Positions 3,433-37,950 of a stretch of 64,000 bases of DNA are shown piece by piece. The stretch comes from Bdellovibrionota bacterium (GTDB lineage: Bacteria; Bdellovibrionota_C; UBA2361; JBIKWN01): assembly GCA_044356295.1 (NCBI GenBank), contig JBIKWN010000006.1, positions 7,134 through 71,133 of the forward strand, read 5' to 3'. A program made the translations under genes and the position numbers. Every line of letters starts with the position of its first letter. The first letter of the stretch is position 1. The notes under the pieces are model-generated. The model searched no databases, was not told where the DNA came from, and worked only from the letters and a program-made list of their open reading frames with translations.

Positions 3433-6165
3433 TTAATGTGCTTGACCCCAATTCTGCCCGACACCTACTTCAGCTTTTAACGGCACAAGAAATGTCACAA
3501 CATGCTCCATTTCTTTTTGAATCCTTACTTTCATAAGTTCCGCATGTTCTTTTGGTGCTTCGAAAACGAGCTCATCATGAACTTGAGAAATCATTGTTAA
3601 TGGAAGATTTTCTTCTCGGATAGCTTTATCAATAGAAATCATTGCAAGCTTTACTATATCTGCAGCAGTACCTTGAATTGGGGCATTCACAGCAATTCGA
3701 TTTTGAAACCCTTTGTCTCGTTCAGAAAATTCTGAAGGTTGTATAAATCTTTTACGCCCAAAAACAGTAGTAACACACCCAAGGGTAGCGGCATCGGATT
3801 CAAGTTTAGCGAACAACTTCTTTACACCAGGATACTGATTGAAATAATTTTGGATATACATCTCTGCTTCACGCATGGAAACTGAGAGCTCTTTCGATAA
3901 ACGAAATGCACCCATCCCATAAATAATTCCAAAATTAAGTGTTTTTCCGACCCGTCGTTGTTCAGTGGTAACATCAAAAAGCGGAGGAACTGCAAAGATT
4001 TCTCGGGCTGTTTTCGTATGAATATCAATACCCTGATGAAAAGCATCGATTAAATTTTTATCTTCACTCATATGAGCCAGCACTCTAAGCTCAATCTGTG
4101 AATAGTCAGCAGATAAGATGACAGAGCCAGGTTCTGCGATAAACGCCTGTCTAATCTTTGCGCCTTCTGTGGTTTGAATCGGAATATTTTGAAGGTTTGG
4201 ATCAGATGAAGAAAGACGTCCTGTGGCAGTTACGGTTTGATTAAACTTTGAATGAATTCGATCTGTTTTTTTATTAATAGATGTTGGCAGTGAATCAACA
4301 TAGGTGCTTTTTAATTTAAAAAGGGTTCTATGTCTTAAGATCTCTTTAGGAACTTCATGACGTTCCGCTAAAATTTCAAGGACACTAGCATCAGTTGAAA
4401 ATCCAGTTTTTGTCTTCTTTACACCTTTGGTAGATATCCCAAGTTTTGTAAATAAAACTTCGCCGAGCTGTTTTGGAGAATTAAAATTAAACTCTTCTCC
4501 GACCATTGCAATAATTCGCTCGCGAACTAATTCTAATTCAGCAGTTATTTCTTCACTCATCCCTGCGAGGAATTTTTCATCAACTTTTACTCCGGCTAAC
4601 TCCATTCTAGAAAGGACTGGCACTAGCGGCATTTCGATTGTTTTGAAAACATTTGTAAGCTCTTTTTCTTCCAGTAGCGGGAAAAGCACTTTATAAAGAT
4701 CATATGCAACGAGGGCATCCTCAGCAGAATACTCTGCTGCCGCTTCTATAGGGACAGCTTGGAATCCTTCCTCTACATTTTGCAGAGATTCATATTCAAT
4801 AACACCACGTGAAAGGTACTCAGCAGCAAGCGCTGTCATACCAAATCCATTTTTATCTGGATTTAAAAGATACGCTGCAACCATTGTGCAAAAAAGATTA
4901 CCTTCTACTTGTACACCCTGAGCTGCGAGAATACTTAGATCAAATTTAAGATTTTGTCCTATCTTCAAAGAAGTTTTATCGGAAAATACAGGGTTTATCT
5001 CTTTTTTAAAAAGTTCCCACGGAATCTGTTCTGATACTTTTTCACCATTGGTATGTGAAAAAGGAATGTAGAAGTTAGAATCACCTCCAAATGAGAAAGA
5101 CATACCAACAACGTCTGCACAGTGCGGATCAAGAGAAGTTGTTTCAATGTCGAACGCAAATTCCTTCTGTGAAGCTATTGAAGTAAGAAAAGAATTTAAA
5201 TCATTTTTATAGATTGTTTTATATAAAGATGAGCTTATCGTTGATGCAGGCTTTTCATATTTCAGAGAAAGCTCTTTTAAAAGAGAGGTAAACTCAAGTT
5301 TCGAAAAAAGAGTTTCTACTGCATCTTTGTCAGGACTTTTTCTTGCACAAAAAATTAAAAGCTCTTCATCTGATTTATCTCGAAGATCAATTGGAGCGTC
5401 GGTAAGTATCTCAACTAGTTTTTTACAGAGGCGCAGAGTTTCTTTATTTTCTGAAATATTCTCAGCAAGTTTCTCTCTACTTCGAATTGTTTTATCAACT
5501 TTAATCTGATCTACTGCAGCAATAATTGACTCGATCGAGCCGTACTGTTGAACAAGTTGAGTCGCAGTTTTAGGACCCACTCCGCTCAGTCCTGGTATAT
5601 TATCTGACGTGTCACCCATAAGGGAAAGGACATCGACAACTTGGGAAGGAGGCACACCAAACTTTTCAATAACGCCTTCCGCTCCAAACTTTTTATCCTT
5701 CATCGTATCCCAGATTGATACGTTATCATTAACTAACTGACAGATATCTTTATCACCAGTAATTATACAGACAGGATGTCCAAGCTCAGAAAATCTTTTT
5801 GAAAGTGTTCCAATAATATCATCAGCTTCAAATCCAGGAAGCTCAAGCACTGGCAATCCTAATACGGATGACAGTTCACGAAAAACTGGCATCTGTGGAA
5901 CCAATTCAGGGGGACACTCTGCTCGGTTTGCTTTATAAGCTTCATAAAGATCATTTCGAAATGTTTTTTTCCCTGCATCGAAAATCATAACGACATGTAC
6001 AGAATCTGAAAGCTTTAAAAGCTTTCCAAGCATTCGGGTAAATCCGTAAAGGGCGTTAGTCGGAAAGCCTTCCTTTGTAGATAAAGGAGCTACGGCATAA
6101 AAGGCTCTAAAAATGTAGCCACTGCCGTCAATGAGGTAAATCTTTTCTTTTTGGTTCTCGGTCAT
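3433..6165 (-). CDS. polA: DNA polymerase I
   Basis: 910 aa. 5'-3' exonuclease N-domain (LIDGSGYIFRAFYA), a 3'-5' exo domain and the polymerase motifs (DYSQIELR, QVHDELVFE). Confidence 0.95.
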   Translation of the reverse strand: MTENQKEKIYLIDGSGYIFRAFYAVAPLSTKEGFPTNALYGFTRMLGKLLKLSDSVHVVMIFDAGKKTFRNDLYEAYKANRAECPPELVPQMPVFRELSSVLGLPVLELPGFEADDIIGTLSKRFSELGHPVCIITGDKDICQLVNDNVSIWDTMKDKKFGAEGVIEKFGVPPSQVVDVLSLMGDTSDNIPGLSGVGPKTATQLVQQYGSIESIIAAVDQIKVDKTIRSREKLAENISENKETLRLCKKLVEILTDAPIDLRDKSDEELLIFCARKSPDKDAVETLFSKLEFTSLLKELSLKYEKPASTISSSLYKTIYKNDLNSFLTSIASQKEFAFDIETTSLDPHCADVVGMSFSFGGDSNFYIPFSHTNGEKVSEQIPWELFKKEINPVFSDKTSLKIGQNLKFDLSILAAQGVQVEGNLFCTMVAAYLLNPDKNGFGMTALAAEYLSRGVIEYESLQNVEEGFQAVPIEAAAEYSAEDALVAYDLYKVLFPLLEEKELTNVFKTIEMPLVPVLSRMELAGVKVDEKFLAGMSEEITAELELVRERIIAMVGEEFNFNSPKQLGEVLFTKLGISTKGVKKTKTGFSTDASVLEILAERHEVPKEILRHRTLFKLKSTYVDSLPTSINKKTDRIHSKFNQTVTATGRLSSSDPNLQNIPIQTTEGAKIRQAFIAEPGSVILSADYSQIELRVLAHMSEDKNLIDAFHQGIDIHTKTAREIFAVPPLFDVTTEQRRVGKTLNFGIIYGMGAFRLSKELSVSMREAEMYIQNYFNQYPGVKKLFAKLESDAATLGCVTTVFGRKRFIQPSEFSERDKGFQNRIAVNAPIQGTAADIVKLAMISIDKAIREENLPLTMISQVHDELVFEAPKEHAELMKVRIQKEMEHVVTFLVPLKAEVGVGQNWGQAH

Positions 6166-6705: not shown

Positions 6706-7782
6706 ATGAAACTGTTTGAACCATTTATGCTTGGAACTCTTCCATTAAACAACCACCTGATCATGGCGCCGCTCACTAGAAGCAGAGCATCCGCCGACGG
6801 CATTCATTCAGATATTGCTGTTACCTACTACACGCAACGTGCAAGTGCGGGGCTTATTATCTCTGAAGCAACAGCAGTCTCGAAACAAGGATCAGGCTAT
6901 CCACATATTCCTGGAATCTGGAACGATGCTCAAGAAAAAGCATGGTCAAAAATTACCTCTGCGGTTCACCAAGAAAACGGAAAGATATTTATTCAACTTT
7001 TTCATACTGGACGCATTGGGCATTCCTCGCTTTTAGCTGAACAACCTGTATCTGCAAGCGACAAAACTCCAGAAGGTGAAATAATGGCTTCAGATTTTTC
7101 AATGAAAAAATATGAAACACCTCGAGCCCTTCCAATAAATGAAATTCCAACCATTGTTGCTCAATTTAAAAACGCAGCAGTTCATGCAAAAAATGCAGGA
7201 TTTGATGGTATTGAAATCCATGGTGCTAATGGATATTTGATTGATCAATTCCTACGTGATGGATCAAACAGCAGGACAGATGATTACGGTGGGTCAATTG
7301 AAAACAGAGCAAGACTTCTAACAGAAATCATAACAGCAGTTATAGATGTTTGGGGCCCACAAAAAGTTGGTGTCCGCCTCTCGCCACATAACGCTTTTAA
7401 TTCAATGTCAGATTCAGATCCAGTGACTACATTTGTTGAAGTATCAAAAATTCTTAATCAATTTCCATTAGCGTATCTGCACCTGATGGAACCAATTGGC
7501 GAGCACCCTTTTGCGGCTCAAAAAGGATCAGTTCGTGTTACCAACCGAATTCGTGAAGTATATAAAAGCATCCTGATGGTTAATGGTGGAATCAACAAAG
7601 AGATCGGCGAAGAGTTTTTACAAGAAGGAAAAGCTGATCTGATCTGTATGGGTGTTCCGTTTATTGCGAATCCAGATTTAGTGACTCGTTTAAAAAACAA
7701 CCTGCCCCTTGCTGCGCCTAAGTATGAACTTTTTTATTCTGGTGGCGAAAAAGGCTATATTGATTATCCGAATGCGGGATGA
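6706..7782 (+). CDS. NADH:flavin oxidoreductase of the Old Yellow Enzyme / alkene reductase family
   Basis: OYE motifs: MAPLTRSRA, HGANGYLIDQFL, and a C-terminal GGYTDYP-like GYIDYP. Confidence 0.9.
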   Translation: MKLFEPFMLGTLPLNNHLIMAPLTRSRASADGIHSDIAVTYYTQRASAGLIISEATAVSKQGSGYPHIPGIWNDAQEKAWSKITSAVHQENGKIFIQLFHTGRIGHSSLLAEQPVSASDKTPEGEIMASDFSMKKYETPRALPINEIPTIVAQFKNAAVHAKNAGFDGIEIHGANGYLIDQFLRDGSNSRTDDYGGSIENRARLLTEIITAVIDVWGPQKVGVRLSPHNAFNSMSDSDPVTTFVEVSKILNQFPLAYLHLMEPIGEHPFAAQKGSVRVTNRIREVYKSILMVNGGINKEIGEEFLQEGKADLICMGVPFIANPDLVTRLKNNLPLAAPKYELFYSGGEKGYIDYPNAG

Positions 7783-7809
7783 CGTTGTGGATGAAAAGTT
7801 TACGCCCAA

Positions 7810-7942
7810 GGCCCCAATGTCATTAAGTTACGGATTTTCACCCGTGACCTTGACCGTAGGCGTGAGCGTGACCTGTTCTTTTTCGTTCACGCCTACGCTC
7901 ACGGTCACGGGGATCATGTGCTTAACTTAATGACATTGGCCC
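7810..7942. repeat. Palindromic intergenic element, copy 1 (MITE/REP-like)
   Basis: Terminal inverted repeats ccaatgtcattaagtta / taacttaatgacattgg flank an internal palindrome ccgtgaccttgaccgtaggcgtgagcgtgac // gtcacgctcacgcctacggtcacgg. A second copy lies at 22242-22377. Confidence 0.7.
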
Positions 7943-8040
7943 AAAGCCCTGCTAAGTAAGACAAAAGACCTCTAAGGGCGTAAATTTTTTCGATGTTTTT
8001 TGTTCTACGCGAGTCTGTGCAAAAATGATATAATCCCATT

Positions 8041-8271
8041 ATGACTCGCGATGCAAAACAACTTCTAGATGCAGCACTTGGATTATCTGAGCAAGATAGA
8101 GCTACTATTGCATCTTCACTCATTGAGAGCTTAGAACAACCCAGCGATATAGATGTCGAAGAAGCCTGGCAGGAGGAAGTAACAAAACGATTAAATGACA
8201 TTCAATCTGGTAACATAAAGCCAATCTCTTGGCTTGATGCTCGTAAAGCAATTACAGATACAATCAAATAA
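8041..8271 (+). CDS. Putative addiction-module antitoxin component (small alpha-helical protein with LSEQDRA motif)
   Basis: 76 aa. LLDAALGLSEQDRATIASSLIESL resembles the 'putative addiction module component' family usually paired with RelE/ParE toxins. A RelE/ParE-like ORF follows 6 bp downstream. Confidence 0.6.
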   Translation: MTRDAKQLLDAALGLSEQDRATIASSLIESLEQPSDIDVEEAWQEEVTKRLNDIQSGNIKPISWLDARKAITDTIK

Positions 8272-8276
8272 TAGCA

Positions 8277-8465
8277 ATGGAAGTATTTCTCCATCCTGAA
8301 GCGCTTAATGAAGCTCGGGCAGCGTTTCTGTGGTATTCCACTCGCAGATTTTTATTTCGGCGATTTCCTTTCAGCTTAATCTACTTTATTCAAGAAACAA
8401 GCATTCTTGTTGTAGCGGTTGCACACGGTCGTCGTAAACCAGGTTACTGGAATAATCGAAAATAA
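8277..8465 (+). pseudogene. RelE/ParE-family toxin remnant with an internal deletion
   Basis: The C-terminus RFPFSLIYFIQETSILVVAVAHGRRKPGYW matches the RelE/ParE core (RFPYSIIYRV...VLAVAHQRRRPGYW). The protein is only 62 aa against about 95 for the family. The N-terminal HPEA...AAFLWY is fused directly to RRFPFS, so roughly 30 aa are missing. Confidence 0.5.
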
Positions 8466-22145: not shown

Positions 22146-22241
22146 CTTTTTTACAATTTTGTTACGTATTCTATAACATATTGATATTACTAGCTTAAAT
22201 ACAAGAAACTTCCGCCCTTTTCTCTTCGACTAGTAGGTATA

Positions 22242-22377
22242 CCAATGTCATTAAGTTAAGAACTTAAGTACCGTGACCTTGAGCGTGAGCCTGAGCGTGA
22301 CCCAAATGATTTAAGGTCACGCTCACGCCTACGGTCATGGTCACGGGGTAGAAATGCCTTAACTTAAAGACATTGAG
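22242..22377. repeat. Palindromic intergenic element, copy 2
   Basis: ccaatgtcattaagtta...gtgaccttgagcgtgagc...gtcacgctcacgcctacggtca...taacttaaagacattg. Same family as 7810-7942. Confidence 0.7.
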
Positions 22378-22436
22378 TAGAACTACCTGCGATTTTTCGC
22401 ACAAACAACTATCAATTTATTTAGGAGAAACCCCCT

Positions 22437-22793
22437 ATGTCCAATAGCTTCACGAATCCAGCCACAACAAACCTTGGTAATACTGTCTATTCACAACTAG
22501 CAGCTAGCGACACCCAAAACCAATTAACAGATGCTCAACGGGTCAGCGGTAACCATATTAATAAGATCGAAACAGACCTTGCAGGAGCATCGAGCCTTGA
22601 GAATGACCCAGCAAAAGTGAGCGCTTGGGCAAAAGAGCATGGATACGGAGATGTCAAAAATCAAAACGCACTCATTTCAATGATTCAGTCAAAGTTAGAT
22701 AGATCTTCACAAGTATTTTTAACACTTCAAAAAGTAAGAGACCGCTCACACGATATGATGATGGAGATAATCCGTGCTTTAGGAAAAGTCTAA
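22437..22793 (+). CDS. Hypothetical polar protein without a Sec signal
   Basis: 118 aa. S/T/N/Q-rich N-terminus and a helical C-half. Good RBS (aggagaaaccccctATG). Confidence 0.5.
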   Translation: MSNSFTNPATTNLGNTVYSQLAASDTQNQLTDAQRVSGNHINKIETDLAGASSLENDPAKVSAWAKEHGYGDVKNQNALISMIQSKLDRSSQVFLTLQKVRDRSHDMMMEIIRALGKV

Positions 22794-22842
22794 CCATTCA
22801 CAACAAAAAACTATTATCTTTTAATTATTAATAAGGATTTTT

Positions 22843-23859
22843 ATGTCACTACAAACTTCATCAACATCACCATCAACTAATGTAACAACGACGACAAACA
22901 ATCAAACACAAAGCACACCTCCTGCCGTTCAAACAGGTTCTCTTGTTGCAGTACTTTCTAAGTTATCAGGTAAAAAAGTTACCGCTGATCAACTAACAAA
23001 CATGAAATTTTCAGAAGAAATTCTGTATGCATCATCTGTGCATAGCGAGCTGTCTAAAACATCAAAACCACTTCTGCAAACATTCATGAGTGAGCTCAAA
23101 GAACGATATGACCGCAGAATCAAACGAAACGATACACAACCTATCGCTAAAGCAATCAACGATATTCTAGATAATGGAGTAAAGGGTAAAAAAATAACCC
23201 AAAAACAGTACGAAACAATTCTTGCGAAAGCGCTCGGCAATTCTCAAGTTGATAAAAATAAAGCTGCGGTAGGAAATCAAATAAGAACTGGTGGTATGGA
23301 TAAAGCTACAAGTCTAACCAAAAATAATACAGCAGCCACAAAAAAAGCTGTGGATGCATTTGAAAAATCTGTTTCCACACTTAAGTTTCAGGCCCCTGCA
23401 ACAACACGAACTCAAGTTGCTAATATGCAAAAGATATTTGACTCTCTTAAGAAAGCGACTCCTAAAACTCCAAAACCTGAAACATCGACAAAACCTTCAA
23501 ACAGTGACGAAACTGGCACTGTCAAAACAAACACTCCGGATCCAACAAAAGATTCAAGTCCAAATCATTTTGATTTTAGGATTAAATCTGATGTTGATGG
23601 AAAACTCTTGGTTCGTTTACCGATTACTTTTAGACAAGACATAGAGTCAGTATCCTTAGTAGACAGCAATGGCAAAGTCCTCGAAGAACAACCGCTCAAA
23701 CAAAAAGGTGAAGACAATCGTTACTATTTTAGATTTACTAAAGCAGGCGATAAATACGCAGATAGCCTAGAGGTAAGAATTAATTATCAAAATGGCACAC
23801 AGATGCCAATCTCAATTAAAGATGCACGAAGCAATTACAGCCAAGAATATCAGGGATGA
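22843..23859 (+). CDS. Hypothetical protein with an S/T/N-rich disordered N-terminus and a beta-rich C-terminal domain
   Basis: 338 aa. N-terminus MSLQTSSTSPSTNVTTTTNNQTQSTPP. A K/T-rich linker. C-terminal domain with YYFRF and EVRINYQNG. Confidence 0.55.
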   Translation: MSLQTSSTSPSTNVTTTTNNQTQSTPPAVQTGSLVAVLSKLSGKKVTADQLTNMKFSEEILYASSVHSELSKTSKPLLQTFMSELKERYDRRIKRNDTQPIAKAINDILDNGVKGKKITQKQYETILAKALGNSQVDKNKAAVGNQIRTGGMDKATSLTKNNTAATKKAVDAFEKSVSTLKFQAPATTRTQVANMQKIFDSLKKATPKTPKPETSTKPSNSDETGTVKTNTPDPTKDSSPNHFDFRIKSDVDGKLLVRLPITFRQDIESVSLVDSNGKVLEEQPLKQKGEDNRYYFRFTKAGDKYADSLEVRINYQNGTQMPISIKDARSNYSQEYQG

Positions 23860-31940: not shown

Positions 31941-32101
31941 GGGGACGCTCACCTTTATAAGAAGCCACTACGGTTTGTTAGAAATTAATTGAAGATATTT
32001 TAAGTAACGCGAAGGTCGCGAAGTACGCGAAGGGTTAATTTTTTCCTTCGGGTACTTCGCGACCTTCGCGTTATTTAATTAAGTCATAAAAGTGAGCACC
32101 C
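31941..32101. terminator. Long nested hairpin between convergent genes; also a member of a repeat family
   Basis: Outer arms ggggacgctcac / gtgagcacccc. Inner perfect hairpin taacgcgaaggtcgcgaagtacgcgaagg ...ccttcgggtacttcgcgaccttcgcgtta. A partial second copy lies at 37811-37858. Confidence 0.55.
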
Positions 32102-37370: not shown

Positions 37371-37500
37371 AGACTCAACATATTACTCCCGTGCCCCCAT
37401 CACGAACAAGAGCTACAAATTAGAGGCACATGCCGATGAAAAGTTTTATATGCTAAGAAAATGACAATCGCTTAAACTTTCGCTAAAATCCCCCCTCAAT

Positions 37501-37574
37501 GCACTCGTAGCTCAGTTGGATAGAGCAACCGCCTTCTAAGCGGTGGGTCGGAGGTTCGAATCCTCCCGAGTGCG
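37501..37574 (+). tRNA. tRNA-Arg (anticodon TCT)
   Basis: Cloverleaf folded by hand. Acceptor gcactcg/cgagtgc. D-arm gctc-agttggata-gagc. Anticodon stem accgc/gcggt with loop cTTCTaa. T-arm ggagg-ttcgaat-cctcc. Discriminator g. Confidence 0.85.
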
Positions 37575-37790
37575 ATTTTTAGATTTTTTAGTGCTTTAGT
37601 TAGAGGGAGGATTCGAACCTCAAAACAACAAGGTCGAATCGTTCTAAGGTTGCGGTGCGTAGCAGCGCAGCCTCCCGAGTGCGATTTTTAGATTTTTTAG
37701 TGCTTTAGTTAGAGGGAGGATTCGAACCTCAACAACAAGGTCGAATCATTCTAGGGGTACGATGCGTGGCAACGCAGCCTACCAATGCCA
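37562..37790. repeat. Tandem ~109-bp duplication made of tRNA-Arg 3'-end fragments
   Basis: cctcccgagtgcgatttttagattttttagtgctttagttagagggaggattcgaacctc occurs at 37562-37620 and 37671-37729. Each unit carries a direct copy of the tRNA 3' 13 nt and an inverted copy of the T-arm. Confidence 0.55.
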
Positions 37791-37810
37791 CTACTGTCCG
37801 GCAGCGAATC

Positions 37811-37858
37811 ATTGAAGACATTTTTAGTAACGCGAAGGTCGCGAAGTACGCGAAGGGG
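37811..37858. repeat. Partial copy of the 32005-32073 hairpin repeat
   Basis: attgaagacatttttagtaacgcgaaggtcgcgaagtacgcgaaggg matches aattgaagatattttaagtaacgcgaaggtcgcgaagtacgcgaaggg at 31990-32034. Confidence 0.6.
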
Positions 37859-37950
37859 GAAATTAAAAATTTATTCGTACCGGGTAATTGTGTGACGCTT
37901 CGCTGATGTAAAGATATATCTGAGTCATTCGATTTGCTAGAATTTTATCT

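Follow-up and report, generated by a model that had tools for sequence, protein, structure and literature searches.

The 64,000-nucleotide stretch analysed here (contig JBIKWN010000006.1, positions 7,134 to 71,133; hereafter the window) contains two related palindromic elements, both intergenic and 14.4 kb apart. An earlier note on this DNA had described two intergenic copies of about 130 bp with shared terminal inverted repeats and an inner palindrome, and both are present where it had placed them; analysis of their ends and flanks refined the limits to 7815-7938 for copy 1 (124 bp) and 22243-22375 for copy 2 (133 bp). Copy 1 lies 32 bp past the stop codon of an old-yellow-enzyme (OYE) gene and 102 bp ahead of an Unstab_antitox gene; the next gene encodes a truncated ParE toxin. 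Copy 2 is located between a zf-HC2 gene and a divergently oriented, unannotated gene of 118 aa. The two copies have a common layout, in which an 18-bp inverted repeat, a spacer of 8-13 bp, a GC-rich imperfect palindromic core, a second spacer and a second inverted repeat follow one another. Their features, with the strand where one was assigned, are as follows.

7804-7814: left target-site duplication of copy 1, GCCCAAGGCCC, identical to 7939-7949 at 10 of 11 positions
7815-7832, plus strand: left terminal inverted repeat of copy 1, CAATGTCATTAAGTTACG, 17/18 to the family consensus
7841-7874: core arm A of copy 1, GTGACC TTGACC GTAGGC GTGAGC GTGACC, 6-bp periodic
7875-7883: central T-rich loop of copy 1 (7869-7883 unpaired in the minimum free energy fold)
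7884-7912: core arm B of copy 1, an imperfect reverse complement of arm A
7921-7938, minus strand: right terminal inverted repeat of copy 1, 18/18
7939-7949: right target-site duplication of copy 1, GCCCAAAGCCC
22232-22242: left target-site duplication of copy 2, AGTAGGTATAC, identical to 22376-22386 at 8 of 11 positions
22243-22260, plus strand: left terminal inverted repeat of copy 2, 18/18
22271-22302: core arm of copy 2, B type, GTGACC TTGAGC GTGAGC CTGAGC GTGACC
22303-22314: central loop of copy 2
22315-22346: core arm of copy 2, A type, reverse complement, one mismatch to the arm A 29-mer of copy 1
22358-22375, minus strand: right terminal inverted repeat of copy 2, 17/18, with A changed to T at position 8
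22376-22386: right target-site duplication of copy 2, AGTAGAACTAC

A core arm thus consists of five 6-bp units, GTGACC (T/A)TGACC GTAGGC GTGAGC GTGACC, and the two arms are separated by a loop of 12-15 nt. The predicted hairpin of each copy comprises 47-48 pairs, somewhat fewer than the stem of about 60 bp proposed before, with a folding energy of -68 to -76 kcal/mol and a z-score of -9 to -15; the z-scores themselves range from -9.3 to -14.6, for folds of -71 to -76 kcal/mol. The elements have a GC content of 46-48%, against 38% for the genome, and possess no coding capacity, the open reading frames (ORFs) that overlap them being without Pfam match. The 17-mer CCAATGTCATTAAGTTA matches the window four times at up to two mismatches, once at each element end, and seven times at up to three mismatches, where 0.32 matches are expected from shuffles. 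The 29-mer core occurs twice in the window (0.00 expected).

The best alignment of the two copies is obtained in opposite orientation, copy 1(+) with copy 2(-), at an identity of 75-79% (102/136 to 107/135), and arm A of copy 1 is 97% complementary to 22314-22347. The earlier note had named a local segmental duplication including the flanks as the explanation that would rule out a dispersed element, and the presence of only two copies in the window, within 14.4 kb of each other, would agree with it. However, the 300-bp flanks of the copies are unrelated (local alignment scores of 11-14, the chance level, for each side compared), and the opposite orientation, the degree of divergence, a separate direct repeat at each copy, the unoccupied site of relatives and the different surroundings of a third copy (both described below) argue against it as well, so that an origin of the pair by segmental duplication instead of transposition is hardly conceivable.

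Target-site duplications, which the note had listed among the things to look for, were found at both copies. Copy 1 is flanked by GCCCAAGGCCC and GCCCAAAGCCC (empirical window frequency 3e-5); at the spacing of copy 1, two of 63,854 window positions are matched as well as this, and one of the two is the site of copy 1 itself. The repeats AGTAGGTATAC and AGTAGAACTAC around copy 2 are less well preserved (empirical window frequency 2.6e-3, that is 0.0026). Relatives of the copy 2 region were reached via a >90%-identical variant (same 90% cluster) of a nearby response regulator. In two of these, L072 and L073, the flanking genes share ~79% nucleotide identity with the window and the gene order is kept, with the response regulator, a GLF-domain gene, a 350-aa gene and the 118-aa gene followed by the divergent zf-HC2 gene and then RluB. 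The region between the 118-aa and zf-HC2 genes measures 147 bp in L072/L073 and 291 bp in the window, and the shortfall of 144 bp in the relatives corresponds exactly to the 133-bp element plus the 11-bp duplication. Homology to the relatives in blastn breaks at window position 22241, at the left end of the element, and restarts at 22435. After removal of the element and one repeat, the window sequence (...CGACTAGTAGGTATAC joined to CTGCGATTTTTCGC) is collinear with that of the relatives (...CGATTACCAGGTATA--GGCGATTTTTTCGC), and the relatives therefore carry a single target copy, ACCAGGTATAG, at the copy 2 site. This comparison of a filled with an empty orthologous site is the decisive test, and it demonstrates that copy 2 is an insertion.

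As gene callers sometimes call ORFs inside such repeats, a protein database was searched with translations of the element. The same metagenome sample also contains a 2.5-kb (2554-bp) contig with a spurious ORF of 57 aa (P0020). Over its whole length (IVIKLR...VNLMTL) this ORF shares 88% identity with the translated copy 2, and its neighbours, a cupin gene and a 182-aa gene, differ from those of copy 2. The residues RRG are present on both sides of it, as expected for an in-frame duplication. From this match, which is at the protein level only, we infer a third copy at a different locus. The same search returned P0021 (29 aa), a one-residue variant of the copy 1 ORF located on other contigs, and P0022, which is located on the contigs L067/L068 discussed below.

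The four ends of the window elements match the 18-bp sequence CAATGTCATTAAGTTAAG at 17-18 of 18 positions. An exact scan of the IMG/VR viral contigs for CAATGTCATTAAGTTAAG identified 54 stretches; that many of these lie at contig ends is expected for a multi-copy repeat. Facing pairs of this sequence bound elements of 1.6-2.1 kb in L006, L018, L019, L024, L027, L053, and L054, and non-coding elements of 143-215 bp in L001, L010, L029, L034, L041, and L052. Direct repeats of 9-10 bp with at most two mismatches flank 14 inverted pairs in 12 fetched loci, as well as the insertion sequence (IS) IS1675; they were scored where both flanks were readable, and L054, which starts at a contig end, was left out. 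Elements with these ends are similar to each other over the 18 bp and no further, except in a subset where the similarity extends to ~24 bp. The 1.65-kb element of L019 encodes a 435-aa protein assigned to the IS4-family transposases (NCBIfam NF033592, 164 bits vs a cutoff of 115), which also matches Pfam PF01609 (DDE_Tnp_1) and whose closest annotated plasmid relatives are 'IS4-like element IS1675 family transposase' genes from Lactococcus. An annotated Lactococcus IS1675 (L056, 1604 bp) has the exact CAATGTCATTAAGTTAAG at both ends, within a perfect inverted repeat of 26 bp, and a 10-bp duplication. The ends of Escherichia coli K-12 IS4, TAATGCC(A/G)(G/A)TCAGTTAAG, are matched at 15 of 20 positions, with a duplication of 12 bp. 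Elements of the IS4 subgroup are 1400-1650 bp in size, encode a DDE transposase with a YREK motif and are characterized by the end signature -AATR--------WTW- and direct repeats of 10-13 bp (PMC2266710, Table 1); CAATGTCATTAAGTTAAG agrees with this signature (AATG at positions 2-5, TTA at positions 14-16), and the 11-bp duplications of the window lie within the range.

The earlier note had considered a REP-like nature and pointed to transposases of the IS200/IS605 or IS630 type. Members of IS200/IS605 have subterminal hairpins in place of inverted repeats and produce no target duplication, while IS630/Tc1-mariner elements duplicate a TA target. Repetitive extragenic palindromes (REPs), and the bacterial interspersed mosaic elements (BIMEs) related to them, would be moved by a REP-associated tyrosine transposase (RAYT) of the IS200/IS605 Y1 type, and the palindromic, GC-rich, intergenic elements in this AT-rich genome do resemble them in these respects. 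A REP is a palindrome of 20-40 bp with a GTAG or CGTC head and has neither inverted repeats nor a target duplication (PMC3733652). The window elements are instead 124-133 bp long and start with CAATG, with no GTAG/CGTC head; a RAYT gene was not searched for. Their 18-bp inverted repeats are IS4-family ends of the IS1675/IS4 type, the duplications are 11 bp long and not TA, and the copy 2 site is empty in relatives, all of which leaves a REP/BIME or an IS630-type element with practically no probability.

In bacteria, a MITE (miniature inverted-repeat transposable element) is small, usually under 200-400 bp, and has no transposase gene (PMC3184786). Judged by the criteria used there, the window element has the size, inverted repeats matching those of an IS, target duplications, an empty orthologous site (copy 2), and a stable stem-loop, and its copies may be dispersed through the genome, with two in the window between unrelated flanks and the third suggested by P0020. 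No transposase was found in the 64-kb window in a tblastn search with an IS1675-like transposase, and the window elements are therefore non-autonomous. Both copies thus very probably represent a MITE without its own transposase, mobilised by an IS1675-like enzyme of the IS4 family (IS4 subgroup, closest to IS1675) that acts in trans, and of the interpretations offered in the earlier note the MITE-like one has been borne out. By what is known of the family, a DDE transposase of the IS1675 type, encoded at another genomic site now or formerly, would bind both ends and cut and paste the element, and repair of the staggered cuts would create the 11-bp target duplication. Copy 2 would then have entered the divergent promoter region after the lineage split from its ~79%-identical relatives, and copy 1 probably entered the loop of a terminator-like hairpin downstream of OYE, a type of target often used by the clade.

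Several points weigh against this assignment. The cognate IS1675-like transposase and a genome-wide copy count were not obtained, and the 11-bp duplication exceeds the 9-10 bp of other IS1675-like elements by 1-2 bp. No empty site was found for copy 1, since the relatives are not syntenic downstream of OYE (the closest OYE homologue, of 75% identity, precedes different genes). None of the full-length IS seen shows detectable homology to the core, which leaves its origin as a deletion derivative conjectural, and occurrences of the core without ends sit awkwardly with decay of core and ends at equal rates. These comprise a core in L067/L068 and a half-core in L072/L074.

In L067/L068 (37% GC, from two other JGI samples) a core with 93% identity to that of copy 1 over 70 nt is placed between lpxB and a gene of 750 aa, and its arm A is identical over 32 nt (7843-7874 of copy 1 and 3078-3109 of L067). 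Remnants of the inverted repeats in the flanks of this core are not significant compared with shuffles (p > 0.3 for the ends of the window elements), and the only marginal match near the L067 core, to E. coli IS4, has p = 0.015 uncorrected for 16 tests. L072 and L074 (~79%-identical relatives, 45% GC) have a half-core that matches at 26 of 32 positions, likewise without ends. In addition, L068 contains at 271-360 (~312 in L067) an element of ~90 bp with IS4-like ends, CAATGGCAGTAAGTTATCGGATTTTTT, nested in another palindrome (GCGGATAAAAACTTTTTAGT...); the two contigs differ at this element, and L068 has a run of N there.

The end-less examples would fit a GC-rich, 6-bp periodic core that is an independent repeat or functional module, such as a structured DNA or RNA element or an array of protein-binding sites, captured between IS4-type ends or kept by selection. 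The contrast between an almost invariant arm A (copy 1, copy 2, and L067) and variable B arms points in the same direction, as does the presence in the same window, at 31964-32090, of another palindrome, which is unrelated and 9-bp periodic. On the other hand, all three copies of the source population carry both ends and duplications, and the end-less examples are only two, both possibly decayed or truncated elements. Within one element the arms have 3-5 uncompensated mismatches per 30, and perfect pairing is thus not maintained; neither an Rfam family nor a terminator or promoter consensus is matched; and the existence of MITEs from unrelated hosts in which the same ends enclose a different GC-rich hairpin (L041, L052, L062) suggests a generic by-product and not a specific module. 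We consider an independent module rather unlikely, and it is also unlikely that the 6-bp periodic core forms a separate class of repeats in the uncultured lineage, with a maintenance or spread that does not depend on the IS4-type ends. If the core were independent, the MITE would represent IS ends mobilising a pre-existing structured element, and the palindrome at 31964-32090 would be an instance of the same phenomenon. A core-only scan of viral contigs gave one chance match, inside a GC-rich coding region.

For an IS1675-like MITE, the simplest origin of the core would be an internal deletion of the parental IS that kept a subterminal hairpin, in view of the hairpins beside the ends of autonomous relatives and the hairpin cores of other MITEs with the same ends. 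Autonomous members, including IS1675, the L019 element, and E. coli IS4, have an inward-facing hairpin with a T-run directly past one inverted repeat, located in IS1675 and L019 at the transposase-proximal end (L056 207-290; L019 2450-2529); the hairpin is likewise seen at L066 12091-12130 and at many other ends; this looks like a built-in terminator against read-through from outside. A fold-back origin, in which one IS end is duplicated head to head, was rejected, as the spacers between end and core are non-complementary between the two sides of the element (5/12). An attC-like reading was also dropped, since the order GTTAAG...CTTAAC is the reverse of the RYYYAAC...GTTRRRY of attC sites.

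MITEs with the same ends were identified in several other contigs: 210 bp in L010, L029, and L034, 215 bp in L041, 143 bp in L052, 153 bp in L001 (a Verrucomicrobia metagenome-assembled genome, MAG), and 80 bp in L062. Like the window element they have the 18-bp inverted repeat and are non-coding, and duplications of 9-10 bp are present wherever readable (none was identified for L062). Several contain GC-rich internal hairpins, with the two inverted repeats placed around the hairpin in L041, L052, and L062. Their interiors, however, are unrelated to the GTGACC-type core, and their hosts differ. In scans for the end plus the start of the core, from which the source genome was absent, one unrelated match was found in genome_contigs (the Verrucomicrobia MAG) and three unrelated elements with the same ends in metagenome_contigs. 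The 153-bp MITE of L001 is located at 3684-3836 with a 9/10 duplication, and a contig-end copy is present at 85-122; that of L062, at 1608-1687 in a contig of 58% GC, has a GGGCCCCGTG...CACGGGGCCC hairpin. The presence of the same 18-bp end in L001 and L062 indicates that this end has a very wide host range. In L041 (1002-1664) the 215-bp MITE and its flank are tandemly duplicated with a period of 448 bp, with identical 10-bp direct repeats at both. An element of only 29 bp in L026 (2019-2047) consists of one full inverted repeat plus 11 bp of the other, flanked by the 10-bp direct repeat CGTTGGCAGC inside a terminator-like palindrome, and is either a minimal MITE or the remnant of an excision or deletion. 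A blastn search with the window element against plasmids and phages gave no match, and a full-text literature search for the end sequence returned nothing.

Copy 1 is enclosed by an outer, terminator-like stem right behind the OYE stop codon, whose two halves are as follows.

7793-7807, plus strand: left half of the outer stem enclosing copy 1, AAAAGTTTACGCCC, terminator-like
7976-7990, plus strand: right half of the outer stem, GGGCGTAAA (stem with AAAAGTTTACGCCC ... GGGCGTAAATTTTTT), plus the T-run TTTTTT

This stem is the probable original terminator of OYE and insertion target of copy 1. The reconstructed empty sites of L006, L010, L019, L024, and L052, and the site of the L026 mini-element, are likewise terminator-like hairpins with A and T runs, and in these viral-contig sites the duplication of 9-10 bp takes in the hairpin loop together with a portion of the stem. 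The position of copy 1 agrees with this target choice by IS1675-like elements. Copy 2 is located in the poorly conserved middle of the divergent promoter region. As many members of the clade reside in terminator-like hairpins, they could often disturb or rebuild transcription ends.

The stability of the folds, and the position of copy 1 directly after a gene and inside a stem that ends in a T-run, could suggest that the hairpins were co-opted as regulatory RNA structures for neighbouring genes, as a terminator, a stabiliser of mRNA 3' ends, or a small RNA (sRNA); MITE-derived terminators and sRNAs have been reported in reviews (PMC10969869). Action as a terminator had also been suggested in the earlier note. 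However, both MITE hairpins lack a T-run behind them, and scanning of the two strands revealed no terminator-like site at copy 1 or copy 2. Moreover, termination would be senseless at copy 2, which occupies a divergent promoter region, and the relatives do without this copy. A regulatory role is accordingly very unlikely. No promoter-like site arising from the element was found, and in Rfam only two tRNAs of the window reached the gathering threshold, relaxed scans of both loci giving chance matches only (E >=0.45). Both copies are old, as is indicated by the one and three mismatches in their duplications and a divergence between copies of ~21-25%, and they are most likely now neutral passengers or relics. 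As a side effect, they could influence termination behind OYE or the divergent promoters.

Around copy 1, Pfam matches are lacking for the ORFs 7709-7930 and 7914-8201, which run across the repeat or lie antisense to the antitoxin gene and are likely spurious, as had been supposed. In the toxin-antitoxin pair behind copy 1, described in the note as degraded, the ParE-like toxin that follows the antitoxin gene (8277-8465) is truncated to 62 aa; its match to PF05016 is confined to the C-terminal half and stays under the cutoff. Another contig, with an identical EF-P gene, has a 96-aa ParE gene at the corresponding position. Downstream of copy 2, the 118-aa gene and a 338-aa gene (22437-23859) belong to no Pfam family. 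Their positions are conserved in L072 and L073, at ~66-70% nucleotide identity, and they are hence real genes and not, as previously described, an orphan pair of this genome. In an independent assembly (Logan, SRR11638223), two contigs terminate within the elements, one in copy 1 and one in copy 2, in each case at the edge of the core, position 1 of L059 corresponding to 7910 and position 1 of L061 to 22338. These ends are compatible with repeat-induced breaks; a drop in coverage at a strong palindrome would look alike.

The second palindrome of the window, at 31964-32090 past a gene end at ~31940, has a 9-bp periodic core (CGCGAAGGT CGCGAAGTA CGCGAAGG) with arms of 34 nt that are 94% complementary. 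A half copy of this repeat (82% over 78 nt) lies at 37787-37866, downstream of a tRNA-Arg region. No IS-type ends were recognised at the 9-bp periodic repeat, and its core has no match in viral contigs. The preceding region, 37500-37783, comprises tRNA-Arg(TCT) and two tandem units of ~107-109 bp (D2 and D6), each of which repeats the 3' end of the tRNA (CGAATCCTCCCGAGTGCG) and an inverted T-arm-like segment (GAGGTTCGAATCCTCCC). Integrated elements could have left D2 and D6 behind as remnants of att sites; alternatively, the two units may represent a tRNA-derived repeat.

For annotation, the assignment of the two copies to a MITE explains two spurious ORFs and marks two intergenic regions as insertion-bearing, and the element offers a reason why short-read assemblies break at both loci, with which a coverage drop at the palindrome is equally compatible. 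In a wider context, an exact 18-bp end of the IS4 subgroup is common to autonomous and miniature elements in very different hosts, namely Lactococcus plasmids, many viral or prophage contigs, a Verrucomicrobia MAG, and the uncultured bacterium of 38% GC studied here. The 18-mer may thus serve as a practical probe for the IS1675-like clade and its MITEs.

The element is an ordinary representative of a known kind of bacterial repeat and challenges nothing that is understood about MITEs. Nezha, a MITE of Anabaena/Nostoc, and MIC231 are non-autonomous as well; their inverted and direct repeats are shared with those of an IS, and mobilisation in trans is presumed for both. MIC231 in addition carries passenger genes. 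Nezha was validated by empty vs filled orthologous sites, as here (PMC3184786), and MIC231 denotes cassettes with IS231 ends in Bacillus cereus (cited in PMC2266710); both differ from the window element in belonging to other IS lineages and having other ends. A MITE of Porphyromonas gingivalis that contains a minisatellite has an interior of short tandem units (PMC4596501), whereas the units of the window element are 6 bp long and palindromically arranged, and the IS family is different. With E. coli K-12 IS4 (insG), the type element of the IS4 subgroup, the window element shares the end signature as well as most end positions, but IS4 is autonomous and 1426 bp long, and its transposase is ~20-21% identical to the IS1675-like transposases. 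The closest known system is IS1675 of Lactococcus lactis plasmids, in which the first 18 bp of both ends are identical to those of the window element and the duplication is of about one helical turn (10 bp in L056). IS1675 differs in its Firmicute plasmid host, its length of 1604 bp, its own transposase, and its interior, while the window element is a non-coding unit of 124-133 bp with an 11-bp duplication in an uncultured host of 38% GC.

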